Positions 9,250 to 57,505 of a stretch of 64,000 nucleotides of DNA are shown here, piece by piece. The stretch is from a virus (taxonomy: Duplodnaviria > Caudoviricetes): the IMG/VR virus record IMGVR_UViG_3300027833_000011; one strand, written 5' to 3'. The position numbers were made by a program, and so were the translations under genes. The notes under the pieces are model-generated. The model saw nothing but the letters and a program-made list of their open reading frames with translations. It did not search any database and was not told the origin of the DNA. The first letter of the stretch is position 1, and each line of letters starts with the position of its first letter.

Positions 9250-9990
9250 ATGAAGATTGATAGAGTTTATGTCATCACAATGGATATGAGTGATGAATAC
9301 AAAGATGAGTTATTTGAGAGAGTGTTAAATTTACCACTACCTTCAAATACACCTGTTGAGTTTAAACAAGGGTTTCCAGGTAAGGATTTATTGGAAAGAC
9401 CTGAAGACTTTCCTGAGTATCGTATATACCCACATTGGAACCTTAACAACCCAGAGGGTTGGTGGTGGTGGCAAAGACCAGCGTTATCAGGTGAAGCGGG
9501 TGGTATGATATCACACACAATGTGTTGGGAAGATGCGTATGAGAAGGGGTATGAAAATATTATGATTATTGAAGATGACTTTACGGTCGAAGAACCTATT
9601 GATTGGGGTATCTTTAAAGAACTTGATGGTTATGAATGGGATTTATGTTTAATGGCTCACAATTCATTACACGAACATTTTTCAGATATTATGAAACCTT
9701 TAAATATTGGTAGAGAACATTTTATCAGACCAACGTTCTTTTATAATACTCATACTTATATACTTTCTTCGGGAGGTATTAAGAAATTAGTTGAGGACCA
9801 TTTAGATGTGTTAAAACAAAATATTATAGTATCTGACGAATTTTTATCTGCAGTTACTTCATCACATCCAAGACCTGATTTAAGAGAGATGTACATAACT
9901 AATATGTCAGCGGTTGCTACAAAAGTTAATTATACAGGACAAACAAGAAGTGAAGGTTTGGGTAATTCTTTAACCGAGACTGAAAAGTAA
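9250..9990 (+). CDS. Glycosyltransferase family 25, resembling the C-terminal domain of collagen galactosyltransferase COLGALT
   Basis: VYVITM, RPALSGEAGGMISHTMCW, IMIIEDD, WDLCLM, YNTHTYILS..G.KKL, SDEFLS...HP. Confidence 0.75.
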   Translation: MKIDRVYVITMDMSDEYKDELFERVLNLPLPSNTPVEFKQGFPGKDLLERPEDFPEYRIYPHWNLNNPEGWWWWQRPALSGEAGGMISHTMCWEDAYEKGYENIMIIEDDFTVEEPIDWGIFKELDGYEWDLCLMAHNSLHEHFSDIMKPLNIGREHFIRPTFFYNTHTYILSSGGIKKLVEDHLDVLKQNIIVSDEFLSAVTSSHPRPDLREMYITNMSAVATKVNYTGQTRSEGLGNSLTETEK

Positions 9991-9992
9991 TA

Positions 9993-10000
9993 TATTTATA
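9993..10000 (+). promoter_or_regulatory. Putative phage-specific TATTTATA promoter element
   Basis: Immediately upstream of ATG 10005; motif recurs before many genes. Confidence 0.45.
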
Positions 10001-10004
10001 AGAT

Positions 10005-10573: not shown

Positions 10574-10595
10574 TATCACACTAAAAAATTAATTT

Positions 10596-11270
10596 ATGGA
10601 TTATAGAGATATTAACGACTTTGGTCGTTTTGCTAAAGATAAGGGGATTTCAGGAATGAATCTTCACTACTTCAACCAAAAAGTAGAAAATTCAATGACA
10701 CCTTACATTTTAGAGGAGAGAAGTCTTAACGTAACACAAATGGATGTGTTTTCAAGATTAATGATGGACAGAATCTTATGGGTTTCGGGACCTGTAAATG
10801 ACCAAATGGCGTCTATTGTACAAGCACAATTACTATTCTTAGATAACCTTGACGATAGAGATATTTCAATGTATATCGATTCACCAGGTGGTTCTGTTAA
10901 AGCGGGACTTTCAATGGTTGATGTTATGGACTATGTGAATAGTGATATTGCTACCGTTAATGCAGGAATGGCGGCATCGATGGGTTCTGTACTGTTAGGT
11001 GCAGGAACCAAAGGTAAAAGGTCTTCATTAAGATTCTCACAAACAATGTTACACCAATCATCAGGTGGTGCGGTAGGTAACATTCAAGATGCTGAGATTT
11101 CTATGATTGAATGGAGAAAAGTAAACCAACAGTTATTTGAATTGTTAGGGGGTTACTGTGAAAAAGACGCAGAACAAGTTAAGAAAGATGCGACTCGTGA
11201 TTTCTGGTTAAGTGCTGACGAAGCGAAAGACTACGGAATTATTGATGAAGTTATTCGTAAACGAAGATAA
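10596..11270 (+). CDS. clpP: ATP-dependent Clp protease proteolytic subunit
   Basis: MTPYILEER..MDVFSRLMMDRI, YIDSPGGSV, catalytic Ser in GMAASMGS, His in MLHQSSGG, Asp in RDFW. Confidence 0.95.
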   Translation: MDYRDINDFGRFAKDKGISGMNLHYFNQKVENSMTPYILEERSLNVTQMDVFSRLMMDRILWVSGPVNDQMASIVQAQLLFLDNLDDRDISMYIDSPGGSVKAGLSMVDVMDYVNSDIATVNAGMAASMGSVLLGAGTKGKRSSLRFSQTMLHQSSGGAVGNIQDAEISMIEWRKVNQQLFELLGGYCEKDAEQVKKDATRDFWLSADEAKDYGIIDEVIRKRR

Positions 11271-11274
11271 AAGT

Positions 11275-11944: not shown

Positions 11945-11964
11945 TCTACTTATAAAATACATAT

Positions 11965-12549: not shown

Positions 12550-13341
12550 ATGGCTAAATACACATCACACATCAACCAAGACGAGATATCACATTATCTT
12601 AAAGAGTTAAGAAAGATTCCTGTTATCACACCTGCTAGAGAAAAGGAACTGTCTAAAATTATGTTAAATCCGAATGTAACCCAAAGAGAGACTGATAAGG
12701 TACATAAAGAATTGTTGGAGGGTAACTTAAGATTTGTTATAACAGTGGCTAAAGACTACCAAGGTCAAGGTATTGATTTATCTGACTTGATATCTGAAGG
12801 TAATTTAGGTCTTATGAAGGCGATTAAGTCATTTGATTGGAGTAGAGGTTTAAGATTTATATCATACGCGGTATGGTGGGTTAAACAATCAATCTTCCAA
12901 TGTCTAAATGAAAATTCAAGGACTATTAGGTTACCTGTTAATGTTGTACAAGAAGTACAAAAGGCAAAAAAACAAGATAAACGTGTGGAGGATTTAAATC
13001 CACGTCTTAGTAATTTAGCACACGCAATCACCTTCGATGACCATATTAATGAGGAGGGTGACACTATGTTCGATTTATTAGAAGATGTTGAAGCGGTAAT
13101 GCCAGATTCAGCTTTGGACGGTAAAGATATAGTTAAAAGACAACTCCTTACTATTATGGATGTCTTAGACGAACGTGAAAATGCTATAGTTAAAGATTAC
13201 TTCGGAATCACTGGTACTCCAAGGACTTTAGAAGACATTGGTAATGATTTCGGACTTACAAAAGAAAGGGTCAGACAAATTAAAGAAAAGGCGTTACGTA
13301 AGTTACGTAATGAGTCAGACGCAATATTTGACTACTTATAA
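12550..13341 (+). CDS. RNA polymerase sigma70-family factor (group 1/2-like, no region 1.1)
   Basis: YLKEL, NLRFVITVAKDY, DLISEGNLGLMKA..FDWSRGLRFISYAVWWVKQSI, region 4 TLEDIG..FGLTKERVRQIKEKALRKLR. Confidence 0.93.
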   Translation: MAKYTSHINQDEISHYLKELRKIPVITPAREKELSKIMLNPNVTQRETDKVHKELLEGNLRFVITVAKDYQGQGIDLSDLISEGNLGLMKAIKSFDWSRGLRFISYAVWWVKQSIFQCLNENSRTIRLPVNVVQEVQKAKKQDKRVEDLNPRLSNLAHAITFDDHINEEGDTMFDLLEDVEAVMPDSALDGKDIVKRQLLTIMDVLDERENAIVKDYFGITGTPRTLEDIGNDFGLTKERVRQIKEKALRKLRNESDAIFDYL

Positions 13342-13393: not shown

Positions 13394-14917
13394 ATGAGAA
13401 TACTTAGAGAACTACAGAAAAGAATATTCCCAACGTTGATAGCACTTACGGCATTGTCTGTGAGTCTTTCAGCTGCCTTTTATTCGGTAACGGGATTGAG
13501 TAAATTATTTGCGGGAGCGTCATTTCAAGTTATGGTAATGGCGGGTTCATTAGAAGTCGCTAAATTGGTGATAGCTTCGTTGTTATACCAATATTGGGGA
13601 CAGTTAAATAAAATATTAAGAACCTATCTGTCAGTTGCGACTGTGATATTGGTGATAATTACATCGGTAGGTATATACGGATTCTTGTCTGCGGCGTACC
13701 AAGAAACTGCAACGAAAACAGGGATTGTAGACAAAGAAGTTGAGTTATTAGAACTTAGAAAAAATAGGTTTGCTGAGAGTAGAGATTACTACTACCAAGA
13801 AAAAAAGTCTTTAGATGAAGGGATAAATCAATTAAGGAAAGGGTTATCTAATAACGTCATTCAATATAAAGATAAAGAAACAGGTCAGATTATAACCACA
13901 ACATCATCTTCAAACCGAAGAGCGTTACAAGAACAACTTAAGAGTGCTATAGAACAAAGAAGTCAAATTTCTATTAAGTTAGAACAGGCAACAGATTCTA
14001 TAAATTCAATAGAGGTTAAATCATTGACTGTAGAGACAGAGTCAGATTTGGCAGGTGAATTGGGTCCACTGAAATATTTGAGTGAATTGACAGATGTACC
14101 AATGAATAGGATTATCAATTACTTATTATTGATTATTATATTTGTGTTTGACCCTCTAGCAATATCTTTAGTGATTGCTGCTAACTTTGCGTTTGATAAG
14201 ATAAAACCTAAAAAGAAAGAGGTTGACGATAATACGGAGGTTGGACCACAACCAATGATTTTAAACGAAGATGTTTTATCACACATAGAAAAAGTATTAG
14301 ATAAAAAGGTTAGGGATGTCTCAGACCTTAAAGAACCTGATTCTGAACAAGGGGTAATGGTTGATGAAGAAGAAATCGACGAAGACAATATGTACGATGA
14401 AGATTACTACCAATGGGAAAAAGAATCTGTTGAAGAATTACATTTACGAGACATATCTGAAGATTTTGTAGAGGATATCATAATTGATAAATCCAACCAA
14501 GATGAGTTAATCAGGACAATGGCTAGTTTAGATAGTAGTGAAGTTTTACGTGAAATTAAGAAAGAGATTATGCCGGATAAAGATAATTCATGGGATAGTA
14601 CACTACAAGACGGTTTAGAAGATGAAGAATGGGATGAAGACCATGCGTTAGACCAAGTAATGAATGATATGGTTAAAGATTTCACTGAGGAGGATATTCA
14701 AAAAATAATTGACACCAACGAGGAGGAGATTGAACCTAATGAAGATTTAAAATTAGCGGCTGAAAAATTTAAAGATATAGTGGTCAATGACCCTGAAGAA
14801 GTGGTTGTTGAAGACACGTTAAAAGAGGTAGAACCACCTGTTAGTAAAACTAATGTGTCACCATATTTAAGAGTAGGAAATAGGGTAATACCGAGAAACA
14901 AGAGATATGGAAAATAA
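13394..14917 (+). CDS. Membrane protein: N-terminal TMs, coiled coil, TM, acidic tail
   Basis: Three hydrophobic helices, a coiled coil, LLLIIIFVFDPLAISLVIAA, then a D/E-rich region. Confidence 0.7.
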   Translation: MRILRELQKRIFPTLIALTALSVSLSAAFYSVTGLSKLFAGASFQVMVMAGSLEVAKLVIASLLYQYWGQLNKILRTYLSVATVILVIITSVGIYGFLSAAYQETATKTGIVDKEVELLELRKNRFAESRDYYYQEKKSLDEGINQLRKGLSNNVIQYKDKETGQIITTTSSSNRRALQEQLKSAIEQRSQISIKLEQATDSINSIEVKSLTVETESDLAGELGPLKYLSELTDVPMNRIINYLLLIIIFVFDPLAISLVIAANFAFDKIKPKKKEVDDNTEVGPQPMILNEDVLSHIEKVLDKKVRDVSDLKEPDSEQGVMVDEEEIDEDNMYDEDYYQWEKESVEELHLRDISEDFVEDIIIDKSNQDELIRTMASLDSSEVLREIKKEIMPDKDNSWDSTLQDGLEDEEWDEDHALDQVMNDMVKDFTEEDIQKIIDTNEEEIEPNEDLKLAAEKFKDIVVNDPEEVVVEDTLKEVEPPVSKTNVSPYLRVGNRVIPRNKRYGK

Positions 14918-15500
14918 TCAAAAGCCGTTTCATATTAGAAGAAAACAGAATAAGACTCAAATAATGTTAACTCACACATCACGTGACTTAAAATTTTATT
15001 TGATGACTTTGAAGTATAGATATGGTGGTAATTTTGAAAGAATACCGTCTTATCTTATTAGTAAAGAAGGAGTGGTTACCAATATGTTCGAAGCTAAATA
15101 TAGTTCAAATTACTTTGGAACGAGAAGAATTGATAACCGAGCGATTATAATTTCATTAGAAAATAATGGTTGGTTAAAAAAACATCACCTATCGGGTAAG
15201 TTTATGAACTGGGTTGGTGATATTTATTTTAAGAAGCCTTTCGAAAAGAAATGGAGAGGTTTCGGGTTTTGGGATTCTTATACTGATGAACAGTATAAGT
15301 CATTATCGGACCTAATAACAAAATTAAGTGAAGAGTTTGATATACCTTTGGAGTATGTAGGACACAACACTAAGATAACGGGGGTACAAAATTTTAAAGG
15401 TATTACCTCAAGGTCGAACTATTCGGATATACATACTGATGTGTCACCGGCATTTGATTTTAAAAAGTTAAAACAATATATAGATGAAAAACACGATTAA
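14907..15500 (+). CDS. Second Amidase_2-fold protein, probably degenerate
   Basis: LTHTS, YLISKEG, IISLEN, YTDEQYKSL, TDVSPAFDF parallel the 2301 amidase. Confidence 0.65.
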   Translation: MENNQKPFHIRRKQNKTQIMLTHTSRDLKFYLMTLKYRYGGNFERIPSYLISKEGVVTNMFEAKYSSNYFGTRRIDNRAIIISLENNGWLKKHHLSGKFMNWVGDIYFKKPFEKKWRGFGFWDSYTDEQYKSLSDLITKLSEEFDIPLEYVGHNTKITGVQNFKGITSRSNYSDIHTDVSPAFDFKKLKQYIDEKHD

Positions 15501-30823: not shown

Positions 30824-31144
30824 ATGAAAAAAGTATCATACAGTGAATTTAAAGAGTTACAATCTGGTAACAATAGAATATTCGTAGATTTCTACGCCGA
30901 TTGGTGTGGACCATGTAAAATGATGTTACCTGTATTAGAAAAGGTGTCTGATGAAATGTCTGAGACTGGTGTGACCTTTGTTAAGGTTAACGCTGATGAA
31001 GAAAGAGAATTATCTGCAGAGTTTGGTGTTAGAGGGATTCCAACATTCGTTATGATTGACGAAGGTGAGGTTAAAAACAGATTCTCAGGTGTTAAGGGTA
31101 AAGCGGAATTAACCGAAAGTATTAAAGAAACATTCAATGTCTAA
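30824..31144 (+). CDS. trxA: Thioredoxin
   Basis: DFYADWCGPCKM, KVNADE, GIPT. Confidence 0.92.
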   Translation: MKKVSYSEFKELQSGNNRIFVDFYADWCGPCKMMLPVLEKVSDEMSETGVTFVKVNADEERELSAEFGVRGIPTFVMIDEGEVKNRFSGVKGKAELTESIKETFNV

Positions 31145-31412
31145 AGACGTATTCCTATACACAATGGACGGTTGTCCTTACTGTCAAGAGGTTAAAACAT
31201 TATTGGATAATGATAATGTTAAATACACTGAGAGAGATTGTGATGAATATGAAATGCAATATGAGATATTAAAATCTAATACTGAAAATAACGAATTTGT
31301 TCCTGCTTTTGAAATTAGGGATAATGAAAAAATGACTAAACGTTTCTTAGCTCCTGATAGAGATTTTGAAGAATTAGAACACGCGGTTTATTTAGTTAAA
31401 AAATACATTTAA
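31137..31412 (+). CDS. Glutaredoxin-like protein
   Basis: LYTMDGCPYCQEVK, FVPAF. Confidence 0.85.
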   Translation: MSKDVFLYTMDGCPYCQEVKTLLDNDNVKYTERDCDEYEMQYEILKSNTENNEFVPAFEIRDNEKMTKRFLAPDRDFEELEHAVYLVKKYI

Positions 31413-36959: not shown

Positions 36960-36960
36960 T

Positions 36961-37842: not shown

Positions 37843-37912
37843 TGTAAAACGAGATACTTACAACCGGTGGGTTGTATTTATTAATAATAAACCATATATA
37901 AAAAAAAACAAA

Positions 37913-40429: not shown

Positions 40430-40446
40430 TAATATTAAGGTATGTT

Positions 40447-40474
40447 TATAAGGAGGGGGAAACCCCTCCTTATA
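40447..40474. other. Perfect 12-bp GAAA-tetraloop hairpin between fibre genes (no U tract)
   Basis: tataaggagggg-gaaa-cccctccttata. Confidence 0.75.
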
Positions 40475-40531
40475 TTAACTTATAAAAAATAAAACCTCGG
40501 AAACGAGGAGTGTATAAAAAAATAAAGAATA

Positions 40532-41962: not shown

Positions 41963-42027
41963 AATGGTTGAGTTATCAACTACGTTTGGAAACAAACAAA
42001 TAAATAAAATTAATAAACATTAAAAAA

Positions 42028-48000: not shown

Positions 48001-48849
48001 GCTATTGACACTGACACTGATAACTTTGCTGATTCAGTATCATTCAATTCGACTAATGGTGTATTAACCATTGGTAGAACAGGGACGTTATCTGACATAT
48101 CAGTTGATTTAGATGGTAGATACTTAGTAGATACTGTAGACAACAACAACTATGTAGATGGTGCGAGTTTCAATACGACTAACGGTGTCTTAACAATAGG
48201 AAGGTCAGGTTCTTTATCTGATATTAATATTGATTTAGACGGAAGATTTACAGATAATGGTTACGCAGACGCAATGAACCAACATGTAAAAACTAACTCA
48301 GCGGTAACGTTCAGTACGGTTAATACAGGTCAGGGAGCGACTGAAGTACATTTAATGAATCAAAATGTTAGAACATCTGACACGGTAACATTCAATCAAG
48401 TTAACGCTAGTATTGGTGATATCGATGAAATCAGAATTGATACTACAACGTTAACAAGTTCATTAGGTGTCTTATCTATAAACACTGATGTGGAAATCAC
48501 GGGAGAGTTAAGAGCAACAAGTAAGTCGTTCTTAATCGACCATCCTACTCAACCTAACATGAAGTTACAATATGGTAACTTAGAGGGACCTGAGCATGGA
48601 GTCTACATTAGAGGTAAAGTAGGTGCTGACGGTATGATTGAATTACCAGAATATTGGACTGAGTTAGTACATGAAGATTCTATAACAGTACAGTTAACTG
48701 CTATTGGAGCACCAACAACACACTATGTTAAGTCTATTGAAGACAACAAAGTAGAAGTTGGTTCTGAAAGTGGTATAGTAAATGCTTTCTACACGATAAA
48801 CGCTGAGAGAAAGGATGTTTATAAATTAAGAGTTGAATTTCCAGCTTAA
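42028..48849 (+). CDS. Giant (2273 aa) tail fibre-like protein: coiled-coil shaft, repeated beta modules, C-terminal KSF.IDHP..EGPE domain
   Basis: LVDGAPSALDTLVELA; E..R..D.SL repeats; DNY.TGA.LSGD.LTL modules; KSFLIDHPT..LQYGNLEGPEHGVYIRG. Confidence 0.8.
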   Translation: MALRQLGLFQLNTNPGTQEIDLGTTANFLDEIFVDSISANTYLGDGSGLTIDGIDSLVDSLSIETSARTGADTSLATKISTDVQSAIDNLVDGAPSALDTLVELASKIGEGSISEANIVAEINSVGVRVTNEAATRLSADGSLATLIGQVSTGASSNLASEILQTGNEVNSLTTRISTEESVRDTQVTSLANEITGEVTADITSVDTRITGVEGDLTSVETRLSTEESTMVVTVNSLGTVVDGDISSVVTKIGDEESSRIGADNSLATLISTEVVNRESEDNVLDGKITTEASSRGVADNSLGDRIDTLEDNPYDDSSINTRVGGVESSASSLGARISSEEVVRLSKDNSIATIAGQNTSSINTASTSLTSRISTEEIARTTGVNSVNDKVGVEASSRVVKDDSLDAKIDSEISTLKLDVVQNESDISGEETIRIQKDNSLDSKISTEVVTLEAKDTSLATRIGVEEGARASSDSALSNEISVQASMRQSADTAISSQLISDISVLVDADDNLSSDIVAEESLRYAADDSLTTRVSSVESEVSSNKASTDTRVLTVEGQIGGIDVDITGLTSGVNSLDSKIDSEISSEVVARNSAIVVAKDEIINGAGDAYNTLSELQTALEDNDGDITTILTAQGSINTRITTEESTRLLKDSILESEIDNKTNSLETRISTLTSKDVVIDSDITSEVSSRVSGDLSLNNRISSEESARESAVTAINEAAYDDSSINTRVGGVESDLSSEISSEASSRVLGDNSLNTKIGSVSTALASEIGTTNGEITSLNTRVSNEEDNSTTLENSLVGVDTSLHSRISSEEVTRSLAVSSLHVKSGNITGDVTSIANRIQSEESTRLSSDNILTGSVGSINTRVATEEGKSTSLTTRVSNVESDLTSEVNSVDTRIDNIEAAAYDDSSINTRIGGVESDLTTAEGSLETKITAEESSRVLGDSSLTTVISTLQSDLNTEIASTNTEMTSLDTRLSTIELDDETVESSLETKIGGVSADLATEVGVRGTADTSLTNRIASEETNRVSADSSLALLIGGNASDISSLNELSGVSITGDVLKVSGSNQAFTVDLSQFNDNTDNYITGAALSGDVLTLSRVSGSVTVDLGQYQTSSEVASQITTAITGYATENYVDSAIAPLAVKTVVSAADASLNTKIDSLDSSLDSEISSRIESEDYVIGAAMSNDTLKLTRAKGGVVSVDLSQFIDDTDTDNYITGAAISGDILTLSRQNGDVTVNLGQYQTSSEVASQIATGLVGYATESYVGSAVSPKANKTYVDSQDASLATRIDSIDTTIASHNELDGTSFVANILTVSGSEADYSVDLSSLATDVNVSSGSYNSTTGTLTLTKSDGGTVAVSNFYVDVNGDNFITGASVVGQNLILSRQGLTDITVSLAGFVTSGELTTAISDFKSSSAIATDISSAVATESGIRSSADNSLAVAISAVQSDFDSIPEDENDYISSAAIVSNNLVITRTDGGTVTVSLAQFMDDTNTDNFVTGASLSGDTLTLTRDSGNSITVNLGQYQTSSEVGGQITSALAGYATESYVGSAIAPLAVASAVSTADSSLNTKIDSLESSLNSEVSSRIATEDYLVGATMSNDTLKLTRNLGGIVTVDLGQFKDNTDNFLTGASLSGDLLTLTRNSGGSLSVNLGQYQTSSEVASQITSAIANYATTSYVNTADTSLASKITSVDTRFGGLPSEDYVTGAVMSNDTLKLTRAQGGVVSVDLSRYTTASELTSALSPYATSAVTSTQISSGIQTETNRAVGKENSLHTRIGQVSTALGTEIGTTNSEVTSLHTRVGSVSTVASTNTTNIGSVSALTGSLSSDISTLEASGYDDSSLATRISTEESTRLVKDNSLNTKVGSVSTAIANEINSTNGDITSLNTRVGNEESTRSTKDSSLTTALSAETAARIAGDGSLGTRIDGINELDGLVFSSNVLTVGGSESDFSVDLGVLASDVTVTGGTYNSGTQTLNLTKSNNDTIAISGFAIDTDTDNFADSVSFNSTNGVLTIGRTGTLSDISVDLDGRYLVDTVDNNNYVDGASFNTTNGVLTIGRSGSLSDINIDLDGRFTDNGYADAMNQHVKTNSAVTFSTVNTGQGATEVHLMNQNVRTSDTVTFNQVNASIGDIDEIRIDTTTLTSSLGVLSINTDVEITGELRATSKSFLIDHPTQPNMKLQYGNLEGPEHGVYIRGKVGADGMIELPEYWTELVHEDSITVQLTAIGAPTTHYVKSIEDNKVEVGSESGIVNAFYTINAERKDVYKLRVEFPA

Positions 48850-48897: not shown

Positions 48898-51714
48898 ATG
48901 GCTAAGAACATAATTATCACACCGAATTTAACAGGGACAGATAATCCAAACATAGCTATCACCAATGGAAATGAAGAGATTGTCATCGGCTTAAACGCCG
49001 GTGGCTCTCTTATCTTCCAAGATGGTGGTGGAGCTACGTTATTGGAACTGGACTCTAATGGTAACGCCACAGTAAAGAACCAAAACCTTAAAACTAATCA
49101 GTTTACAGTAAACTCACAAGACGCTTTCGACGAGTCCCTTTATGTAGGTCCATCAGGACACTTAAAAGGACAGAAAGGTATCAAAGGAAACATAGGACCC
49201 ACCGGAGCTCAAGGAGCGAAAGGAGTAATTGGGGCAAAAGGTTTGAAAGGATACATTGGTTCCGTAGGGGTGGTAGGTGCCCAAGGTGCTCAGGGTACTC
49301 AAGGACAAGTAGGTGCAACTGCACCACAAGGTCCAAAAGGCCCAATAGGAAATGCAGGTCCAATAGGACCCGTAGGACCAAAAGGAGGACAAGGTACTCA
49401 AGGACCTAAAGGTTACGTAGGTAATCAAGGGAGTAAAGGAGTAACAGGACCTAAAGGTCTAAAAGGAGGAGTAGGTCTACAAGGACCAAAAGGTGCTTCA
49501 CCTCAAGGACCACAAGGACCGCAAGGACCTCAAGGACCACAAGGACCGCAAGGACCTAAAGGTTATAAAGGGATAAAAGGTGCGACAGGGAATGTCGGAC
49601 CAACAGGTTATAAAGGTATCGCGGGTACTAAAGGTAACGAAGGACCCATAGGGGACAGAGGAGCCACAGGACTTAAAGGATACAAAGGTATTACAGGACC
49701 TAAGGGTCAGACGGGTAATAAAGGACCCAAAGGTAATGCCGGTGACCAAGGACCTACTGCATCGAAAGGTGTGTTAGGTAATAAAGGTACTAAAGGTAAT
49801 AAAGGTGTCATTGGCTCGAAAGGGTATAAGGGCAACAGAGGAACTCAAGGACCAAAAGGATATGAACCGAAAGGACCGAAAGGATACCAAGGACCGAAAG
49901 GATACAAAGGTATCAAAGGAAATAAAGGTATTAAAGGTATTACAGGACCAGGTGGACCGAGAGGTATACAAGGTGGTGGTGGTGACTTAGGACCTACGGG
50001 AACTGCAGGTATCAACGGACCAAAAGGACCAAGAGGTGTTCAAGGACCTGTCGGTACTCAAGGACCAAAAGGTTATAAGGGTGTCAAAGGTATCAAAGGA
50101 CCTCAGGGTACAAAAGGACCTCAGGGAGACCAAGGAGGACCAGGTGCTAAAGGTGTTATTGGAGGCCAAGGTAATAAAGGTATAAAAGGTAACGCAGGAC
50201 CAAAAGGTTATATTGGTTCTTCTATTAAAGGTAATAGAGGAGGACAAGGACCAACAGGTTATAAAGGTATCAAAGGTAATAAAGGTGTTAAGGGTATCAA
50301 AGGAAACTTTGGACCACAAGGACCTACAGGACTAAAAGGAAACCAAGGAGGACAAGGTGCTAAAGGATATGCTGGAGCTACAGGAACTAAAGGTAACCGA
50401 GGTGGTACTGGAGGTTCTGGAGACAAAGGTGTTACAGGACCAGGTGGACCAACAGGTGGAAAAGGTATTAAAGGTAACATAGGTGGCCAAGGAGCAAGAG
50501 GTAATACAGGAGCCCAAGGTTATCAAGGAGCAAGAGGTACTACAGGACTTAAAGGAAATAAAGGTATTAAAGGTTATCAAGGACCAGGTGGACCAACAGG
50601 TGGTAAAGGTATTAAAGGTAATATCGGACCAGGTGGACCAACAGGGCCAGGAGGTGATAGAGGACCAGGAGGTGATACAGGTGGTAAAGGTTACAGAGGT
50701 GACCAAGGACCTGTAGGACAGAAAGGTTATAAAGGAGCACCAGGTGGTAAAGGTATCAAAGGTAACATAGGTGGTCAAGGAGCGAGAGGTCCACAAGGAG
50801 GACAAGGGTCTCAAGGACCACGAGGTGGAACAGGACCAAAAGGACCTAAAGGTTACAAAGGTAATGCTGGTAACAAAGGTTATCAAGGTGCTAAAGGTAT
50901 CAAAGGTAATAAAGGAACTAAGGGTTATACAGGTACTCAAGGGTTGAGTGGTGACAAAGGTTATATAGGTGGACCAGGAGGACAAGGACCAGCTGGAGGT
51001 AATAATACGACTAAAGGTGGTAGAGGAGCTACAGGTTCTTCTCCAAAAGGTTATATTGGAGCACAAGGTAACAAAGGTGTTAAAGGTTTTATAGGTAATC
51101 AAGGACCGGGAGGTGACATATATTTGGTATCAAATTTCCCTGATGCACCAAGTGGACCAACAGGTGATAGAGGACCTACAGGTTCTAATGGTACATCTAA
51201 AGGACCAAAAGGATATGCAGGACCTTTAGGTGCTAAAGGTAATCAAGGACCAAAAGGACCAACGACTTTCGGAAGCAAAGGTAAGAGAGGTGCAAAAGGT
51301 ACTGGAGGACCAAAAGGACCTACAGGTTATAAAGGTATTAGAGGGCCGAATGGTTATAAAGGACCAAAAGGACCTACAGGAAATACATCTGATGCAAGAT
51401 TGAAAGAAAACATTAAAGAGTTAACAGGTGGTATTGAAAAAATATCAAAACTTAGAGGTGTTAAATTTGATTGGGTAGAAGGTTCTATACATAATGTACA
51501 CGAAGTTAAAGGTAGAGATGCTGGTTTTATCGCTCAAGAAGTTAATGAGGTTTTACCTGAGTTGACTAATATAATGAATGAAGAGAATGGTACGATGCAA
51601 GTTAACTACGCTAAGATGACTTCAGTATTAATTTCAGCGCTGAGAGAACAGAGGGAAATCGTTAAAGAATATACTGATAAACTTGAAATAATTAAATTAA
51701 ATCGTTCGAAATAA
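48898..51714 (+). CDS. Collagen-like fibre protein 1 with a C-terminal peptidase S74 intramolecular chaperone
   Basis: Gly-X-Y from ~49147 to ~51384; SDARLKENI..LRGVKFDW..GFIAQEV..VNY. Confidence 0.92.
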   Translation: MAKNIIITPNLTGTDNPNIAITNGNEEIVIGLNAGGSLIFQDGGGATLLELDSNGNATVKNQNLKTNQFTVNSQDAFDESLYVGPSGHLKGQKGIKGNIGPTGAQGAKGVIGAKGLKGYIGSVGVVGAQGAQGTQGQVGATAPQGPKGPIGNAGPIGPVGPKGGQGTQGPKGYVGNQGSKGVTGPKGLKGGVGLQGPKGASPQGPQGPQGPQGPQGPQGPKGYKGIKGATGNVGPTGYKGIAGTKGNEGPIGDRGATGLKGYKGITGPKGQTGNKGPKGNAGDQGPTASKGVLGNKGTKGNKGVIGSKGYKGNRGTQGPKGYEPKGPKGYQGPKGYKGIKGNKGIKGITGPGGPRGIQGGGGDLGPTGTAGINGPKGPRGVQGPVGTQGPKGYKGVKGIKGPQGTKGPQGDQGGPGAKGVIGGQGNKGIKGNAGPKGYIGSSIKGNRGGQGPTGYKGIKGNKGVKGIKGNFGPQGPTGLKGNQGGQGAKGYAGATGTKGNRGGTGGSGDKGVTGPGGPTGGKGIKGNIGGQGARGNTGAQGYQGARGTTGLKGNKGIKGYQGPGGPTGGKGIKGNIGPGGPTGPGGDRGPGGDTGGKGYRGDQGPVGQKGYKGAPGGKGIKGNIGGQGARGPQGGQGSQGPRGGTGPKGPKGYKGNAGNKGYQGAKGIKGNKGTKGYTGTQGLSGDKGYIGGPGGQGPAGGNNTTKGGRGATGSSPKGYIGAQGNKGVKGFIGNQGPGGDIYLVSNFPDAPSGPTGDRGPTGSNGTSKGPKGYAGPLGAKGNQGPKGPTTFGSKGKRGAKGTGGPKGPTGYKGIRGPNGYKGPKGPTGNTSDARLKENIKELTGGIEKISKLRGVKFDWVEGSIHNVHEVKGRDAGFIAQEVNEVLPELTNIMNEENGTMQVNYAKMTSVLISALREQREIVKEYTDKLEIIKLNRSK

Positions 51715-54662
51715 TGGCACTACAAAAAGGAAACAAAGGGATACATATATTCCCAAATAGAGTAGGTACGAATGAACCTAAAATAGAACTTTATCAAGGT
51801 TCTACTACGTATACACTAGAGGTAGAAGACAATACTAATGATGTTGTTATATTCTTAAATGGTACAGAGGTTGCTCGTATGAAATCATCAGGTGATGAAA
51901 GATTTCAAATTGTTGGAGACCTAATAATTGACGGAGATTTAAGAGACTCAAGTGGTAACGTAATCGTAACTCAATCAGGTATATACAACGGAACATTTCA
52001 AGGTACTACAGGTGACAGAGGACCTCAGGGACCTCAAGGTAACCAAGGACCTAAGGGAATAAAAGGACCAAAAGGTAACTTTGGACCTACAGGTCAGAAA
52101 GGACTTAAAGGTATTGCTGGTAATAAAGGTAATAAAGGTACTAAAGGTAATAATTCACCTAAAGGTGTTATTGGAGATAACGGACCAAGAGGAAATGACG
52201 GACCGCAAGGACCGCAAGGACCTCAAGGTGACAAGGGTATTAAAGGTAACTTAGGTGATAAGGGTGTAAAAGGTAACCGTGGATACCAAGGTGGAAACGG
52301 AGACAAAGGACCTATCGGAGCTAAAGGTTATAAAGGAACCAAAGGTATTAAAGGTAACGTTGGTAACAAAGGTATCAAAGGAGTTAAAGGTAATATCGGA
52401 GGTAACGGAGATTTAGGACCAACAGGTTCTAAAGGACTTAAAGGTGTTTTAGGTGTTAAGGGTTATACCGGACAACAAGGACCACAAGGACCTCAAGGAC
52501 CTAAAGGTTATCAACCAACAGGACCAATTGGACCAAAAGGTAATAGAGGATATCAAGGTGCTATTGGTGACAAAGGTTACCAAGGAGGACAAGGTGTCTC
52601 ACCTAAAGGACCAAAAGGTGGGAATGGTGATACAGGACCACAAGGACCTCAGGGTAATAAAGGACCGACAGGACCTAAAGGATATAAAGGTGTCGAAGGT
52701 GGACAATCATCTTCGGGTGTAGGTGTTATTACAGGACCTACAGGGCAGAAAGGTATCACAGGACCGCAAGGACCTACAGGACTGCAAGGACCAATTGGAA
52801 CACAAGGACCTCAAGGACCTAAGGGTTATAGAGGTGCTACGGGTCAGAAAGGATATGCTATCAATGATGACCCTACAACTTCGGGGCTAACGGCTCCTAA
52901 AGGACCAAAAGGACCACAAGGTTACATTGGTGTTACAGGACCAAAAGGTGGTACCGGTGATGGTGGAGATAGAGGACCTCAGGGAACTACAGGTAATGCT
53001 GGTTCAAAAGGTCAGATAGGGACACAAGGTGCTAAAGGTTATAAAGGTAATATTGGTGGACCTGGAGATAAAGGTTATACAGGTGGAAAAGGACCTAACG
53101 CAGCTGCGGGACCAAAAGGACCTAAAGGTAATGTTGGAAACAAAGGTGTAACAGGACCAGTTGGACCACAAGGACCTACAGGACCAATTGGGACTAAAGG
53201 TAATATTGGTAATAAAGGTGTTGTAGGAACCAAAGGTAACAAAGGTATCAAAGGACAAAAAGGAGCATCTCCTCAGGGACCTAAGGGTTACAGAGGACCA
53301 CAAGGTGGTCTAGGAAGTCAAGGACTACGAGGTGGAACAGGACCAAAAGGACCAAAAGGTTACAAAGGTAACAAAGGTGTTAAGGGTTATTTAGGTACCA
53401 AAGGAAACAAAGGTGTCAAAGGATATCAACCAGGTGGACCGCAAGGACCTACAGGGACTAAAGGAAATAGAGGTACTACGGGACCACAAGGACCTACAGG
53501 ACCTCAAGGAAATCAAGGTGGACAAGGTGGTCAGGGACCAAAAGGATATATAGGACCTTCATATAAAGGACCTACAGGTTATAAAGGTGTGGTATCAACT
53601 ATAGGAGACAGAGGTGCTACGGGACCAAAAGGGCCAAAAGGTTATAAAGGTAACGCAGGACCAAAAGGTTATAAAGGTATCAAAGGAAACAAAGGTGTCA
53701 AAGGATATCAACCACAAGGACCTACAGGAGATAAAGGGTACACAGGTGCTAAAGGACAAAAAGGTAATGTTGGACCTACAGGTCCTACAGGACCAACAGG
53801 TTCTAATGGTGCTAAAGGTAACAGAGGTGGTTTAGGACCTCAGGGACCAAAAGGTGTTAAAGGTAATAGAGGTAATACAGGACCAAAAGGACCGAAAGGA
53901 AACAAAGGTACCAAAGGAAACAAAGGTTACAAAGGTAATATCGGACCAGGTGGACCAACAGGACCAAAAGGCGTTAAAGGTAATAGAGGTAACTTTGGAC
54001 CAAACGTAGGACCAAGAGGACCTCAAGGTGGACAAGGACCAAGAGGATACCAAGGTAATTTTGGACCTCAGGGACCAACAGGTGGACAAGGTGGTTCAGG
54101 AGCCGGTGGAGGAACAGGACAAAAAGGTGGTACTGCCGCGGGTCTTAAAGGACCAAAAGGTTACGCAGCGTCTATTTCTTCTTTTGGTGGTTCAGGTGGA
54201 CCAACAGGTGCACAAGGTTTAAGAGGACCTCAAGGTTACCAAGGTTTAAGAGGACCTACAGGAGCTGCCGGTGGAGGTGGAGGAAGTGGACCAACAGGTG
54301 GTGGTTCATCATCCGAAGGACCATCCCTTGGTCGCTCTGATAAGAGACTTAAGTTAGACGTTAACTTAATATCTAATCCATTACAAAAAATCCAAGAACT
54401 AATACCTGTCGAATATGATTGGACAGATAAAGGTTTAGAGGATGGTCTTGTAAGTGGAGCCTACGGTAAACACGATATTGGTTTTGTTGCTCAAAACGCT
54501 AAAAAAGTGATACCAACTTTAGTACATACTAAAGACACGGGTTACTTAACATTGTCATACTCTAGAGTTGTTCCATTAATCATTGAAGCGATTAAGGAAG
54601 AACAGAAAAACATTGATATGTTAGAGGAAGAAATAAATAAACTTAGACTAAACAACAATTAA
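51714..54662 (+). CDS. Collagen-like fibre protein 2 with an S74 chaperone
   Basis: Gly-X-Y ~52002-54330; SDKRLK..PVEYDW..GFVAQ..LSY. Confidence 0.92.
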   Translation: MALQKGNKGIHIFPNRVGTNEPKIELYQGSTTYTLEVEDNTNDVVIFLNGTEVARMKSSGDERFQIVGDLIIDGDLRDSSGNVIVTQSGIYNGTFQGTTGDRGPQGPQGNQGPKGIKGPKGNFGPTGQKGLKGIAGNKGNKGTKGNNSPKGVIGDNGPRGNDGPQGPQGPQGDKGIKGNLGDKGVKGNRGYQGGNGDKGPIGAKGYKGTKGIKGNVGNKGIKGVKGNIGGNGDLGPTGSKGLKGVLGVKGYTGQQGPQGPQGPKGYQPTGPIGPKGNRGYQGAIGDKGYQGGQGVSPKGPKGGNGDTGPQGPQGNKGPTGPKGYKGVEGGQSSSGVGVITGPTGQKGITGPQGPTGLQGPIGTQGPQGPKGYRGATGQKGYAINDDPTTSGLTAPKGPKGPQGYIGVTGPKGGTGDGGDRGPQGTTGNAGSKGQIGTQGAKGYKGNIGGPGDKGYTGGKGPNAAAGPKGPKGNVGNKGVTGPVGPQGPTGPIGTKGNIGNKGVVGTKGNKGIKGQKGASPQGPKGYRGPQGGLGSQGLRGGTGPKGPKGYKGNKGVKGYLGTKGNKGVKGYQPGGPQGPTGTKGNRGTTGPQGPTGPQGNQGGQGGQGPKGYIGPSYKGPTGYKGVVSTIGDRGATGPKGPKGYKGNAGPKGYKGIKGNKGVKGYQPQGPTGDKGYTGAKGQKGNVGPTGPTGPTGSNGAKGNRGGLGPQGPKGVKGNRGNTGPKGPKGNKGTKGNKGYKGNIGPGGPTGPKGVKGNRGNFGPNVGPRGPQGGQGPRGYQGNFGPQGPTGGQGGSGAGGGTGQKGGTAAGLKGPKGYAASISSFGGSGGPTGAQGLRGPQGYQGLRGPTGAAGGGGGSGPTGGGSSSEGPSLGRSDKRLKLDVNLISNPLQKIQELIPVEYDWTDKGLEDGLVSGAYGKHDIGFVAQNAKKVIPTLVHTKDTGYLTLSYSRVVPLIIEAIKEEQKNIDMLEEEINKLRLNNN

Positions 54663-54664
54663 TC

Positions 54665-57505
54665 ATGGCTAAGAATATATTAATCACACCAAATAGAACA
54701 GGAACAGAGTCTCCTGAGATATTGTTAGTAAATAACGGTACTGTAGACTCAATCTTTACAATCGGTGAGAATCTTCCATTACTTATCGGTGAAGACGGAA
54801 CTCCGGCTGCTAGTTTTAGTTCAAACGGGTTTTTAACCCCTAACGGATTTAAAATTACGGGGTCGTTAAAAGTAAGAAATGGGAGTGGAACATCCGTTAC
54901 TGTATTAGATAATACGGGAACATGGACAGGTTCATTCACAGGAATAAAAGGATACCAAGGACCGCAAGGATATAAAGGTCAAAAAGGACCACAGGGTAAT
55001 ACGGGTGACTTTGGACCACAAGGTGACAGAGGTAACCAAGGTGGTTTTGGAGACAAAGGTTATCAAGGTGGACCTGGTGATAAAGGATATCAAGGTAACA
55101 TAGGACCAAAAGGACCAAAAGGTGTTATTGGAGATAAAGGTTTCAAAGGACTTAAAGGTAATTTAGGAACTCAGGGACCCGGTGGACCAATAGGTTCTCA
55201 GGGAGCACAAGGACCTACAGGGCCGAAAGGATACATTGGTAACCAAGGTGGTATAGGACCTCAGGGTAATACAGGACCAACGGGTGACGTAGGATATACG
55301 GGACCAAAAGGTGTTGTAGGACCAGGTGGACCTACAGGGCCAAGAGGTAACCAAGGAACACAAGGTATTTCACCTAAAGGACCAAGAGGTCCTCAAGGTG
55401 AAAAAGGTGTAACAGGAACTAAAGGTTTCAAGGGTACTAAAGGTATTACCGGTGGAAGAGGACCTCAGGGTCAGACTAACACAACCAAAGGACCGATAGG
55501 TTATAAAGGTGTTATAGGTACCAAAGGACAGAAAGGTATTATTGGTTCAACTTCACAACAAGGAGACCAAGGAAACCAAGGACCTCAAGGACCGGGTGGT
55601 AGTAAAGGAGTCATAGGTGCACAAGGTGCTACAGGTGATATCGGTGTTACAGGACCAAAGGGACTTAAAGGTAATGTTGGTGCTAGAGGATACCAAGGAG
55701 GTCAAGGAGGCCAAGGAGCTCAAGGTGGTACCACTAAAGGTAATAAGGGTATTACAGGACCTAAGGGTTATAAAGGTGGAAAAGGACCTGCAGTTGCTAA
55801 TGGACCAAAAGGACCAATAGGAGGAAAAGGTATTAAAGGTGTTTCTAATGTTAGAGGAGCACAAGGAAACCAAGGACCAAAGGGTTATATCGGTATTAAA
55901 GGTGTCAAAGGTGGTGTTGGAGATAAAGGTATTACAGGACCGGGTGGACCAACAGGACCTCAAGGTGTTCAAGGTGTTCAAGGTGATAGAGGTGGAACGG
56001 GTACTTCTTATACGGGTAATATTGGAGACAAAGGTTACCGAGGAGCACAAGGATACCAAGGACCTCAAGGTGGACAAGGACCTCAAGGTGGTAATACTAA
56101 AGGTTACGTAGGTAATCAAGGACCTACAGGACCAGGTGGACCGCAAGGACCTACAGGTCAAAAAGGAGCTACAGGTAATACCGGTGGTGGTGGTGATAAA
56201 GGTTACATTGGAGTTAAAGGAAACAAAGGTGTTAAAGGTTATCAACCACAAGGACCGGGTGGACCAACAGGACCACAAGGACCTACAGGACAAAAAGGTG
56301 TTACAGGACCTACAGGACAAAAAGGTGGACAAGGAAACCAAGGTGTTAAAGGTAATGTTGGTGGGAAAGGACCAAAAGGTTATCAACCACAAGGACCTCA
56401 AGGTAATAAAGGTATCAAAGGAAATAAAGGGGTAAAAGGTAATAAAGGGTACAAAGGTACCGCTACCGTTTCGTCTTTACCTAAAGGAGACAAAGGTCTT
56501 AAAGGATACAGACATTCTACAGGACCAAAAGGTTATCAACCACAAGGACCCGTTGGAGACAAAGGTTATACAGGTGGACCTGGTGATGGCGGACCTACAG
56601 GACCGGGAGGACCAACAGGTGGAAAAGGTGTTAAAGGTAACATAGGTGGTCAAGGTGCCAAAGGTAATGCTGGTGACACAGGTTATCAAGGAGCACAAGG
56701 ACCAAAAGGTGTTAAAGGTAATGACGTTTCTACTAAAGGACCTAAAGGTAATGTTGGAGCTAAAGGAGCTACAGGACCTACAGGACCAAAAGGTTATAAT
56801 GGACCAGGTGGAGACTTGGGTGACACACATCGAGGACCAAACGGACCTACAGGACCACAAGGTCCCCGAGGACCACAAGGTGGAGGTGGAGATAAAGGTT
56901 ATGCTGGATATACTCATTGGGTTAATTCAGGTAGTCCAAAACCGGTAGGACCTAAAGGTTTTAAAGGTACCAAAGGTGTCAAAGGATATACAGGACCTAA
57001 AGGTAATAGAGGTAATACAGGACCTAAAGGTTCTCAAGCACCACAAGGACCAAAGGGACTTAAAGGACCTTATACATTGGCGGCAACTCAAGGACCGATT
57101 GGTGACGCTGGAGCTTCAGGAAACACTAAAGGTTATAGAGGACTTCAGGGACCTAAAGGTTTTCGAGGAAACAAAGGTATTAAAGGATATGCCGGACCAG
57201 CTTCTGATAGAAGAGCTAAGACTAATGTTGAGTTAATTACTGATTCGTTAGACAAAGTATCTAAAATTAGAGGGGTTGAATTCCTATGGAAATCTGATTA
57301 TAAACCTAAAACTTTAGAAACACCAACGGATATTGGGGTTATTGCACAAGAGTTAAAAGAAGTCTTACCTGAATTAGTTATTGAAGGTAATGACGGATTC
57401 TTAAGAGTAAATTATCCACAAATCACATCTTTATTAGTCAATGCGTTTAACGAACAAAACAGTAAGTTAAATATGATTAAGAAAGATATCGATTCGATGT
57501 TATAA
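54665..57505 (+). CDS. Collagen-like fibre protein 3 with an S74 chaperone
   Basis: Gly-X-Y ~54941-57200; SDRRAKTNV..IRGVEF.W..GVIAQEL..VNY. Confidence 0.92.
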   Translation: MAKNILITPNRTGTESPEILLVNNGTVDSIFTIGENLPLLIGEDGTPAASFSSNGFLTPNGFKITGSLKVRNGSGTSVTVLDNTGTWTGSFTGIKGYQGPQGYKGQKGPQGNTGDFGPQGDRGNQGGFGDKGYQGGPGDKGYQGNIGPKGPKGVIGDKGFKGLKGNLGTQGPGGPIGSQGAQGPTGPKGYIGNQGGIGPQGNTGPTGDVGYTGPKGVVGPGGPTGPRGNQGTQGISPKGPRGPQGEKGVTGTKGFKGTKGITGGRGPQGQTNTTKGPIGYKGVIGTKGQKGIIGSTSQQGDQGNQGPQGPGGSKGVIGAQGATGDIGVTGPKGLKGNVGARGYQGGQGGQGAQGGTTKGNKGITGPKGYKGGKGPAVANGPKGPIGGKGIKGVSNVRGAQGNQGPKGYIGIKGVKGGVGDKGITGPGGPTGPQGVQGVQGDRGGTGTSYTGNIGDKGYRGAQGYQGPQGGQGPQGGNTKGYVGNQGPTGPGGPQGPTGQKGATGNTGGGGDKGYIGVKGNKGVKGYQPQGPGGPTGPQGPTGQKGVTGPTGQKGGQGNQGVKGNVGGKGPKGYQPQGPQGNKGIKGNKGVKGNKGYKGTATVSSLPKGDKGLKGYRHSTGPKGYQPQGPVGDKGYTGGPGDGGPTGPGGPTGGKGVKGNIGGQGAKGNAGDTGYQGAQGPKGVKGNDVSTKGPKGNVGAKGATGPTGPKGYNGPGGDLGDTHRGPNGPTGPQGPRGPQGGGGDKGYAGYTHWVNSGSPKPVGPKGFKGTKGVKGYTGPKGNRGNTGPKGSQAPQGPKGLKGPYTLAATQGPIGDAGASGNTKGYRGLQGPKGFRGNKGIKGYAGPASDRRAKTNVELITDSLDKVSKIRGVEFLWKSDYKPKTLETPTDIGVIAQELKEVLPELVIEGNDGFLRVNYPQITSLLVNAFNEQNSKLNMIKKDIDSML

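Follow-up and report, generated by a model that had tools for sequence, protein, structure and literature searches.

Glycosylated hydroxylysine (Hyl) in collagen is made by two enzyme types in animals, for which the reference pair is LH3/PLOD3 and GLT25D1/COLGALT1 (PDB 6fxk, 8zgc, and 9evj; PMC11897130, PMC12987934), and mimivirus encodes a related set that comprises L230 (a lysyl hydroxylase [LH] together with a glycosyltransferase [GT]), R699 (a GT with an accessory [AC] domain, acting as a galactosylhydroxylysine glucosyltransferase), the GLT25D-like protein R655, the prolyl hydroxylase L593, and eight collagens (PMC9546862, PMC12279948). In bacteria, Iyer et al. (2010) predicted that certain dioxygenases hydroxylate collagen-like and tail-collar proteins (PMC2938197). 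Here we analyze a stretch of 64,000 nucleotides from a tailed virus of the Caudoviricetes, probably a marine jumbo phage (IMG/VR record IMGVR_UViG_3300027833_000011; this whole stretch is referred to as the window), which, together with the sequence immediately upstream of it, encodes an LH (P0006), a GT of family GT25 (P0002), a PLOD/LH3-type GT with an AC domain (GT-AC; P0001), and three lysine-rich collagen fibers. We assign a probability of roughly three in four to the three enzymes acting on the phage's own collagen fibers, first by hydroxylation and then by glycosylation. An earlier reading of the DNA letters (here called the original prediction) had proposed that this bacteriophage may glycosylate its fibers with both enzyme types of the animal pathway; the five open reading frames (ORFs) that it named are all present on the + strand where it had placed them, and both sequence and genome comparison support the proposal, from which we infer the function itself.

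The gene at positions 26196 to 27602 (+ strand) encodes P0001, a protein of 468 residues with a PLOD/LH3-type GT domain followed by an AC domain, which makes it a candidate galactosylhydroxylysine glucosyltransferase. It matches Pfam GT_PLOD (PF25342) with an E value of 1.5e-64 (218 bits against a cutoff of 27), and in a phmmer search of solved structures residues 4 to 466 aligned with residues 38 to 515 of human LH3 (9.7e-56) and residues 8 to 464 aligned with mimivirus R699 (4e-51). The AC domain is present, as the LH3 alignment extends to residue 466 of 468, and residues 312 to 464 also match the N-terminal lobe of COLGALT1 (5e-15). All of the motifs that the original prediction had listed for this protein (GGGMKV, FTDSYDV, AEKTCWPD, LNSGGFI, DDDQLYY, HANG, and NFWGG..DGYY..SYDY) occur in the translation. 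By alignment, D82, D85, and H210 correspond to Mn ligands, W41 and Y84 to UDP-stacking residues, K59 to a donor-sugar residue, and E108 to an acceptor residue, while W112 is a gating tryptophan within an identical CWPD motif and the poly-Asp loop is retained as D155-157. The LH3 counterparts of D82, D85, H210, W41, Y84, K59, E108, W112, and D155-157 are D112, D115, H253, W75, Y114, K89, E141, W145, and D189-191, and we take their roles to be those assigned in the LH3 structure paper. P0001 likewise keeps D83, D86, H216, W48, Y85, K62, and E114 of R699; mutation of W48, D83, D86, K62, H216, or E114 affects R699 activity (PMC9546862, PMC12279948, from which the R699-side roles are drawn), and every mutationally validated catalytic residue of that enzyme is retained. 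The catalytic residues are invariant in 12 relatives of P0001, down to 43% identity. The hydroxylase domain is absent: the ORF stops at the AC domain, where the hydroxylase of LH3 would begin, and the next gene encodes a DUF932 protein. With no LH domain in the polypeptide, P0001 is R699-like and not a true PLOD. Because the protein begins where LH3 residue 38 aligns, it has no signal peptide; it is expected to be cytoplasmic and would transfer glucose (Glc) from UDP-Glc to galactosylhydroxylysine.

The original prediction had suggested looking for a lysyl hydroxylase in the rest of the genome, and one lies 250 bases 5' of the window with its HxD...H...R site intact. It was reached through a 106-kb metagenome contig (L001) that has 0 mismatches with the window over 13,230 shared bases. 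This stand-alone gene (positions -939 to -250 relative to the window; L001:6761-7450), 27 kb upstream of the GT-AC gene, encodes the 229-residue protein P0006, of which residues 2 to 204 match the hydroxylase domain of LH3 (residues 526 to 737) end to end among solved structures (3.7e-34); the match to the hydroxylase domain of mimivirus L230 has an E value of 2e-27, and the ortholog has Pfam OGFOD2-like and 2OG-FeII_Oxy matches. The HxD...H iron triad (H137, D139, and H186) is invariant across the six phage sequences compared, which represent three lineages, and H184 is likewise invariant in these lineages; the 2-oxoglutarate (2OG)-binding R196 is kept in the jumbo phage lineages and is a lysine in the cyanophage fusion protein, both of which are described below. 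Since P0001 covers LH3 residues 38 to 515 and P0006 covers residues 526 to 737, the PLOD polypeptide is split here at the boundary between the accessory and hydroxylase domains. The lysine of X-Lys-Gly would be the residue that P0006 hydroxylates.

P0002 (246 residues; positions 9250 to 9990, + strand) is a GT25 enzyme and a candidate hydroxylysine galactosyltransferase. Its match to Pfam Glyco_transf_25 (PF01755) has an E value of 3.8e-9 (37.1 bits, cutoff 24), and COLGALT1 chains are its sole significant relatives among solved structures (7e-7), with a bacterial GT25 scoring 0.4. The match covers COLGALT1 residues 402 to 549, i.e., the C-terminal catalytic domain only; the N-terminal noncatalytic lobe, which binds UDP-galactose (UDP-Gal) and LH3, is absent. 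An AlphaFold2 model built with 40 homologs reached a predicted local distance difference test score of 89.8 (44 from the single sequence), and a Foldseek search with this model returned human COLGALT1 as the top hit (9evj_A; 1.4e-15, template-modeling [TM] score 0.79, root mean square deviation 3.5), well ahead of mimivirus R655 (1.2e-8, TM 0.57) and a bacterial GT25 beta-1,4-galactosyltransferase (8xlz; 5.6e-8, TM 0.40). The structure matches of P0001 and the Foldseek result for P0002 thus group both GTs with collagen-modifying enzymes and not with generic lipopolysaccharide (LPS) or capsule GTs, the placement that the original prediction had named as counting against it. The motifs reported for P0002 in the original prediction (GEAGGMISH..CW, IIEDD, WDL, and DEFL......HP) are all present, although the spacing within the last is six residues and not the four originally given. 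IIEDDF, EWD, and SDEFL align with the EDD (residues 435 to 437), DxD (461 to 463), and DE (522 and 523) of COLGALT1, and E108-D109-D110 and D196-E197-F198 are invariant in the 40 homologs; the middle motif is likewise invariant, as (E/D)WD. In GLT25D1 the EDD is a metal motif, D522 is the catalytic base, and E523 holds the hydroxylysine amine (PMC12987934). Catalytic residues established by mutagenesis in LH3 and GLT25D1 are thus retained in the phage enzymes, as are those of R699 (PMC9546862, PMC12279948, PMC12987934). COLGALT1 Y494 is also kept, as Y165.

The putative substrates are three consecutive collagen fibers on the + strand: A (938 residues; 48898 to 51714), B (982 residues; 51714 to 54662), and C (946 residues; 54665 to 57505). 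Each consists of an N-terminal domain of about 90 residues, a collagen region (233 G-X-Y triplets in 10 runs, 232 in 13 runs, and 222 in 17 runs, respectively, the longest run reaching 86 triplets; Pfam Collagen 5.8e-73, 4.7e-75, and 1.8e-61), and a C-terminal Peptidase_S74 chaperone domain (PF13884; 5.3e-16 to 2.6e-10 across the three fibers, 1e-15 for A). Putative SD.R.K cleavage motifs lie 100 to 108 residues before the C termini (SDARLK at residue 831 of A, SDKRLK at 875 of B, and SDRRAK at 847 of C). The fibers match many tail fiber PHROGs (for example, A to phrog_6320 at 3.5e-135), which, with their place after a tail-tip J-like gene, suggests that they are part of the virion. Lysine occupies the Y position in 237 of 687 triplets (85 of 233, 83 of 232, and 69 of 222 in A, B, and C, or 31 to 36%) and the X position in 1 of 687 (a single residue, in A); the original prediction had counted 12 lysines in the opening 36 triplets of fiber A, a figure that was reproduced exactly. 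Lysyl hydroxylases and GLT25D1 both use X-Lys-Gly as their acceptor context (PMC12987934, PMC13382579). Proline is common at X (62, 73, and 63 triplets; 198 in total) and nearly missing at Y (3, 1, and 2; 6 of 687), a pattern in keeping with our having seen no prolyl hydroxylase in the window phage. Between orthologous collagens, lysine at Y was kept at 42 of 85 positions, compared with 25 to 44% for other common Y residues, a difference that is suggestive only; where lysine was replaced, it became glutamine 18 times and arginine only 3 times.

The argument that carries most weight for a shared function comes from other phages, in which the same modules are fused and placed beside fiber genes. 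In the cyanophages S-CAM9 and S-8S53, the C-terminal part of a "tail fiber protein" comprises 55 to 59 G-X-Y triplets (lysine at Y in 22 to 24 and at X in none) followed by an S74 domain, and 3' of its gene lie two small 2OG oxygenase genes and then a gene for a 613-residue GT25+GT_PLOD+LH fusion (GT25, 6e-29; GT_PLOD, 7.5e-47; the C terminus matches P0006 at 1e-14). S-PRM1 carries the three-enzyme-domain fusion as well, and in Roseobacter phage CRP-6 the fusion (gp58) is encoded two genes from a collagen fiber with 99 triplets (26 with lysine at Y, none with lysine at X). The three enzymes P0002, P0001, and P0006 map collinearly onto phrog_61 (profile positions 65 to 181, 213 to 417, and 433 to 636), a family labeled "2OG-Fe(II) oxygenase, auxiliary metabolic gene." Of 50,697 phage records, only 11 contain the GT25+GT_PLOD+LH fusion. 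Among 22 metagenomic contigs of the fusion type, a collagen gene was found on each of the 16 in which more than 2.3 kb of sequence precedes the GT-domain match, and the 6 without one all end less than 1.3 kb before it; at nine loci with only weak GT matches, collagen, LH, and GT25 were each absent (0 of 9). Across viruses the domain combinations seen are split genes, GT+LH, GT25+GT+LH, and GT25+GT-AC+LH, the last as fusions of about 900 residues on contigs of giant virus metagenome-assembled genomes (MAGs). That the modules are repeatedly fused and lie beside G-X-K fiber genes in unrelated phages is our strongest argument that they constitute one pathway acting on fibers, and the co-occurrence of the GTs with G-X-K collagens, which the original prediction had put forward as a check, holds in a diverged relative, a second jumbo lineage, cyanophages, and a roseophage.

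Two variants of these loci deserve mention in their own right. Metagenomic proteins of about 692 residues (P0030, P0063, P0080, and P0106) have a PLOD-type GT and an AC-like region fused to a methyltransferase (PF13489/PF08242); both such loci that were viewed (L026 and L028) have G-X-K collagens within 10 kb, and the fusion may represent a different fiber modification. Three IMG/VR contigs of 60 to 66 kb (L030, L031, and L058) encode a 923-residue GT25+GT-AC fusion followed by two collagen-S74 paralogs of about 255 triplets each, of which one has lysine at Y in 3 triplets and the other in 27, a natural contrast for studying substrate choice.

Proteins 41 to 94% identical to P0001 were found in marine metagenomes only. 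A contig walk through a lineage whose GT-AC is 55% identical showed LH, GT25, GT-AC, and a pair of collagens arranged as in the window phage; in one of these collagens, lysine stands at Y in 63 of 213 triplets and never at X. A more distant lineage (47%; Tara contig) has both GT-AC and GT25. Beyond these, a second jumbo lineage represented by IMG/VR contigs of 42 to 199 kb (CheckV completeness 34 to 66% for five contigs) encodes a 477-residue GT-AC that is 34 to 36% identical to P0001. A stand-alone LH 45 to 48% identical to P0006 is present in four of five contigs searched, the fifth having only a weak partial match (5e-10); a G-X-K collagen ORF occurs at all five loci and GT25 at two. Where the fiber gene is fully visible, it lies 6 to 8 kb downstream of the GT-AC gene and encodes an S74 domain, and lysine makes up about 40% of Y residues. 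The LH gene is tandemly duplicated in four IMG/VR contigs of this lineage (G001, G002, G003, and G005; L074 to L077), with copies 45 to 48% and 30 to 34% identical to P0006, which suggests two hydroxylases of different specificity. We considered a giant virus origin for this lineage and rejected it: a phage tail sheath gene is present in two of the five contigs, and neither the capsid of nucleocytoplasmic large DNA viruses (NCLDV) nor VLTF3 was found in these contigs, in searches for which the controls were weak. Terminase_6C was also not found in the contigs of this lineage.

Taken with the homology, the catalytic residues, the substrate motif, the linkage, and the fusions described above, the enzyme activities, the sugars, the substrate, and the biological role would be as follows. 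P0006, as an Fe(II)/2OG-dependent LH, would hydroxylate lysine of X-Lys-Gly in unfolded chains, for which there are 237 candidate sites. P0002 would then place a sugar on the 5-hydroxyl, most likely galactose (Gal) from UDP-Gal and with D196 as the catalytic base, and P0001 would extend it by a further sugar, in all likelihood glucose donated by UDP-Glc, to give Glc-Gal-Hyl. All of this modification would take place in the host cytoplasm. The S74 domains would next trimerize the chains, nucleate the triple helix, and cleave themselves off at SD.R.K, in a manner comparable to the procollagen C-propeptide, and the glycosylated fibers would go onto the tail or baseplate. That the product is exactly Glc-Gal-Hyl we regard as having about an even chance, and of all steps we are least sure of the donor and exact acceptor of P0002.

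Several observations weigh against this interpretation, and the first of them concern the GT25 enzyme. Identity between P0002 and COLGALT1 is only 16 to 18%, and W495 and K470, both important acceptor-site residues of GLT25D1 (PMC12987934), align with Asn in P0002, in a phmmer alignment that at such identity could also be shifted by one residue to pair the motif with Phe-Tyr. With these two residues lost, the acceptor or the sugar may differ, and the model and alignment together indicate that P0002 is a COLGALT-type GT25 enzyme with an altered acceptor cleft. The fibers might therefore be modified with a chemistry other than Glc-Gal-Hyl, such as a single glucose on Hyl, other sugars, partial glycosylation, or another donor or acceptor for GT25. 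Precedents exist in mimivirus, where L230 yields Glc-Hyl that is not extended by R699 (PMC9546862) and R699 also makes kojibiose (PMC12279948), so that side activities are known. We nevertheless consider a different chemistry unlikely, given that the Mn-binding EDD and the DE pair are invariant in P0002, that P0001 keeps the donor-glucose and acceptor residues of R699 and LH3, and that GT25 and GT_PLOD domains have been fused repeatedly in other viruses.

The placement of the genes is a further difficulty for a pathway acting on the fibers. The LH, GT25, and GT-AC genes are not beside the collagen genes but lie 21 to 50 kb away, and the LH and GT25 genes abut SbcD- and SbcC-like genes of DNA metabolism, although such placement would fit enzymes that are made before their substrate. 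Specifically, the LH gene overlaps by 11 nt the start of an SbcD-like Metallophos gene whose 3' part occupies positions 1 to 519 of the window (+ strand; the two genes together span L001:6761-8219, or -939 to 519), and the GT25 gene begins 2 nt past the stop codon of an SbcC-like nuclease subunit gene (6906 to 9248, + strand; phrog_77, 2.4e-44, with a protein of Microcystis phage Mel-JY01 as its closest match), an arrangement that is kept in a relative lineage (L069 and L071). Both couplings, of LH with the SbcD-like gene and of GT25 with the SbcC-like gene, are retained in the lineage with the 55% identical GT-AC (L071). 

Dispersed enzyme genes would also be compatible with a role away from the fibers, in which GT25, and perhaps all three enzymes, target host envelope glycans or host or other phage proteins and the link to collagen is coincidental. 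Databases usually read such proteins in this way, under LPS biosynthesis or as auxiliary metabolic 2OG-Fe(II) oxygenases. Close homologs of P0002 are named [quoted passage not shown] and published work has assigned GTs adjacent to pelagiphage tail fiber genes to LPS modification (PMC7029224) and has interpreted the 2OG oxygenases of cyanophages as serving metabolism or the repair of DNA (PMC9146016). In its fold, however, P0002 comes nearer to COLGALT1 than to the bacterial GT25 galactosyltransferase of known structure, P0001 and P0006 have collagen enzymes as their top matches among solved structures (1e-55 and 4e-34), and the three-domain fusion adjoins the G-X-K fiber gene in S-CAM9 and S-8S53 and lies two genes off in CRP-6, which makes a coincidence of this kind quite improbable. 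The couplings to the SbcD- and SbcC-like genes could be taken to mean that the dioxygenase and GTs hypermodify phage DNA bases against restriction, and hydroxylated bases are indeed glycosylated in some phages (PMC13326640), but this is very improbable, as the pathways described there use thymidylate-synthase-like hydroxylases and other GT types, P0006 aligns end to end with a peptidyl-lysine hydroxylase with no DNA-modifying enzyme among its solved-structure matches, and the enzymes adjoin fiber genes elsewhere.

The remaining points against collagen fiber modification concern comparison sets and expression. Gene order shared within a single phage family does not count as independent evidence, as the genomes are syntenic throughout. 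No collagen-positive, enzyme-negative phages were found with which the specificity of lysine at Y could be tested: the four S74 fibers examined from enzyme-less phages have no collagen repeats, leaving no such comparison set. In the leaders of the enzyme and collagen genes no common promoter motif was apparent by eye. Seawater metatranscriptome contigs from a strain about 96% identical cover GT25 and not GT-AC, and DNA carryover is possible in these data; two raw RNA-seq runs from studies containing the DNA yielded zero reads. As a separate matter, we considered TATTTATA as a shared late promoter and rejected it, as it shows no enrichment (13 copies against 10.7 expected) and does not occur upstream of the enzyme and collagen genes. 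Six of its seven + strand copies (at 9993, 13351, 18219, 31946, 34367, and 59503) lie 12 to 43 nt 5' of an ORF start, as would suit a late promoter of other genes.

The gene content of the window bears on whether the contig could instead derive from a eukaryotic virus, i.e., a giant virus or a relative of one, which would make it one more mimivirus-like case. The window has about 32% G+C, with ORFs nearly all in the same orientation, and encodes an endolysin with Amidase_2 and PG_binding_1 (peptidoglycan-binding) domains (2301 to 3230), ClpP (10596 to 11270), and a sigma-70 factor (12550 to 13341; phrog_351, 2.6e-55), as well as a Dam-type methyltransferase and the DUF932 protein. Directly 5' of the collagens is a block of large co-oriented ORFs (34404 to 48849, + strand; 851, 293, 838, 476, and 2,273 residues) whose gene order is kept in a relative; the 838-residue product weakly resembles tail-tip J, adhesin, and tail fiber proteins of known phages (3e-8 to 2e-4), and the block is probably a tail or host-recognition module. 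Full-length GT-AC homologs and the GT25+GT-AC+LH fusions on giant virus MAG contigs, together with the collagen-S74 fibers of polinton-like viruses (PMC12220804), would be in keeping with a eukaryotic virus, but the odds of this are remote in view of the endolysin, the sigma-70 factor, ClpP, the Microcystis phage-like SbcC, the tail-tip J-like protein, and the GT-AC phylogeny, which joins the window lineage to a clade with the second jumbo lineage (two contigs of which have a tail sheath) and apart from giant viruses.

This phylogeny was a quick maximum-likelihood analysis of 62 GT-AC sequences. The window lineage is monophyletic (support 100) and sister (98) to the clade containing the second jumbo lineage. 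A separate clade (100) unites the animal PLODs, and a third group takes in most of the giant virus fusions. Being unrooted, the tree gives no direction of transfer; the GT-AC gene was not captured recently from an animal. At the DNA level the window phage has no close relative among sequenced phages: a megablast search with 20 kb against phage records gave no match, and within IMG/VR a profile scan and a single-protein scan both failed to recover a close relative of the window lineage.

Other features of the window and its relatives were recorded in passing. The 2,273-residue ORF (42028 to 48849), which adjoins the collagens and has a counterpart of 2,015 residues in the relative, matches PHROGs without a function only over its last ~140 residues, and a short stretch of it weakly resembles a minor tail protein. 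Two separate N-acetylmuramoyl-L-alanine amidase genes (2301 to 3230 and 14907 to 15500) are both kept in relatives. A MetK-like ORF on the - strand (33338 to 34315) is similar to S-adenosylmethionine synthetase in the C-terminal domain alone (PF02773, 3.8e-18) and is kept in relatives (L006 and L068), adjoining a DnaJ-like gene. Thioredoxin and glutaredoxin genes, side by side at 30824 to 31400, follow the GT-AC gene at a distance of 3 kb and are likewise kept in relatives (L006:14665-15250), in which a small Hc1 histone-like gene (PF07432) also occurs. A 300-residue ORF (476 to 1378) is composed of repeated (E/K)V(I/P)(K/V)E-type units, such as EVIKEVEKIVEKPIEV, and has a weak bZIP-like match only.

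The statement in the original prediction that no such system had been described in phages held to the extent that we found no description of a collagen-lysine modification system in bacteriophages in open-access papers or bioRxiv preprints, a scope that leaves most subscription journals outside; the system is, however, not unique to the window phage, and the enzyme set (L230, R655, R699, and L593) has already been characterized in mimivirus (PMC9546862). If the pathway operates as proposed, a modification so far regarded as invented by animals, with mimivirus as the single viral exception, would also belong to prokaryotic viruses, where it would sit on host-recognition fibers as a new kind of phage virion modification. 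It would also give a concrete function to proteins of cultured cyanophages and roseophages that are now labeled "hypothetical," "2OG-Fe(II) oxygenase AMG" (auxiliary metabolic gene), or "LPS GT25," and it bears on the origin of the PLOD and COLGALT domain fusions. More tentatively, Hyl-linked tail fiber glycosylation might be widespread and unrecognized in marine phages (jumbo phages, T4-like cyanophages, and roseophages), with the phage enzymes forming an old clade of their own beside animal PLODs and hence a reservoir, or even the source, of the metazoan toolkit; we regard this as possible, if somewhat doubtful. Because S-CAM9, S-PRM1, and CRP-6 are cultivable, the hypothesis can be tested directly on virions. 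Glycosylated collagen is not yet producible in bacteria, partly because active human collagen GTs express poorly there (PMC9546862), and enzymes that evolved for the bacterial cytoplasm would be natural candidates for this purpose; if the phage enzymes do work in that compartment, they could permit production of glycosylated collagen in Escherichia coli.

Compared with the animal enzymes, the phage proteins share a collinear domain match with LH3 and COLGALT1 in which metal, UDP, and catalytic residues are kept, at about 30 to 35% identity for GT-AC and LH and 16 to 18% for GT25, and the acceptor context of the animal enzymes, lysine or Hyl at Y before glycine, dominates the phage collagens. 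Unlike animal PLOD, the polypeptide is split in the window phage into two genes 27 kb apart; unlike COLGALT1, P0002 has neither the LH3-binding N-terminal lobe nor W495 and K470; and, in contrast to the animal situation, the phage enzymes have no signal peptides and there is no endoplasmic reticulum. The parallel with mimivirus lies in the virus-encoded LH, LH3-type GT-AC, and GT25 homologs that accompany viral collagens, and P0001 resembles R699 in consisting of GT and AC domains with no LH. The differences from mimivirus are that the LH of the window phage stands alone at 229 residues and is not fused to a GT as in L230, that the P0002 fold is nearer to human COLGALT1 (TM 0.79) than to R655 (TM 0.57), that no prolyl hydroxylase was seen in the window phage and proline is at Y in only 6 of 687 triplets, that the putative substrates are tail fiber-type proteins with a predicted self-cleaving S74 domain, and that the host is bacterial, so that the enzymes must work in a bacterial cytoplasm.

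Among bacteriophages, the closest counterparts are the fusions of about 590 to 620 residues in S-CAM9 (N161109_031), S-PRM1, S-8S53/55/56, and CRP-6 (gp58), all of them members of phrog_61 with the annotation "hypothetical" or "2OG-Fe(II) oxygenase." They share with the window phage the three catalytic modules and a collagen fiber with lysine at Y and none at X, with an S74 end in S-CAM9 and S-8S53. In the cultured phages the modules are fused and encoded near the fiber gene, whereas the window phage has three separate, dispersed genes; the window GT has an AC domain, which the cultured-phage fusions lack, and the cyanophages carry one or two additional 2OG-FeII_Oxy_3 genes. The prediction of Iyer et al. 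involves other enzyme families and sulfation and includes no PLOD-type LH with GT25 and LH3-type GTs (PMC2938197), and the collagens of E. coli prophages are alike in being G-X-Y fibers that serve as phage tail fibers (PMC3368898). Set beside these systems, the window phage would represent the collagen lysine pathway of animals and mimivirus applied to bacteriophage tail fibers, in a fully split form that retains the AC domain.

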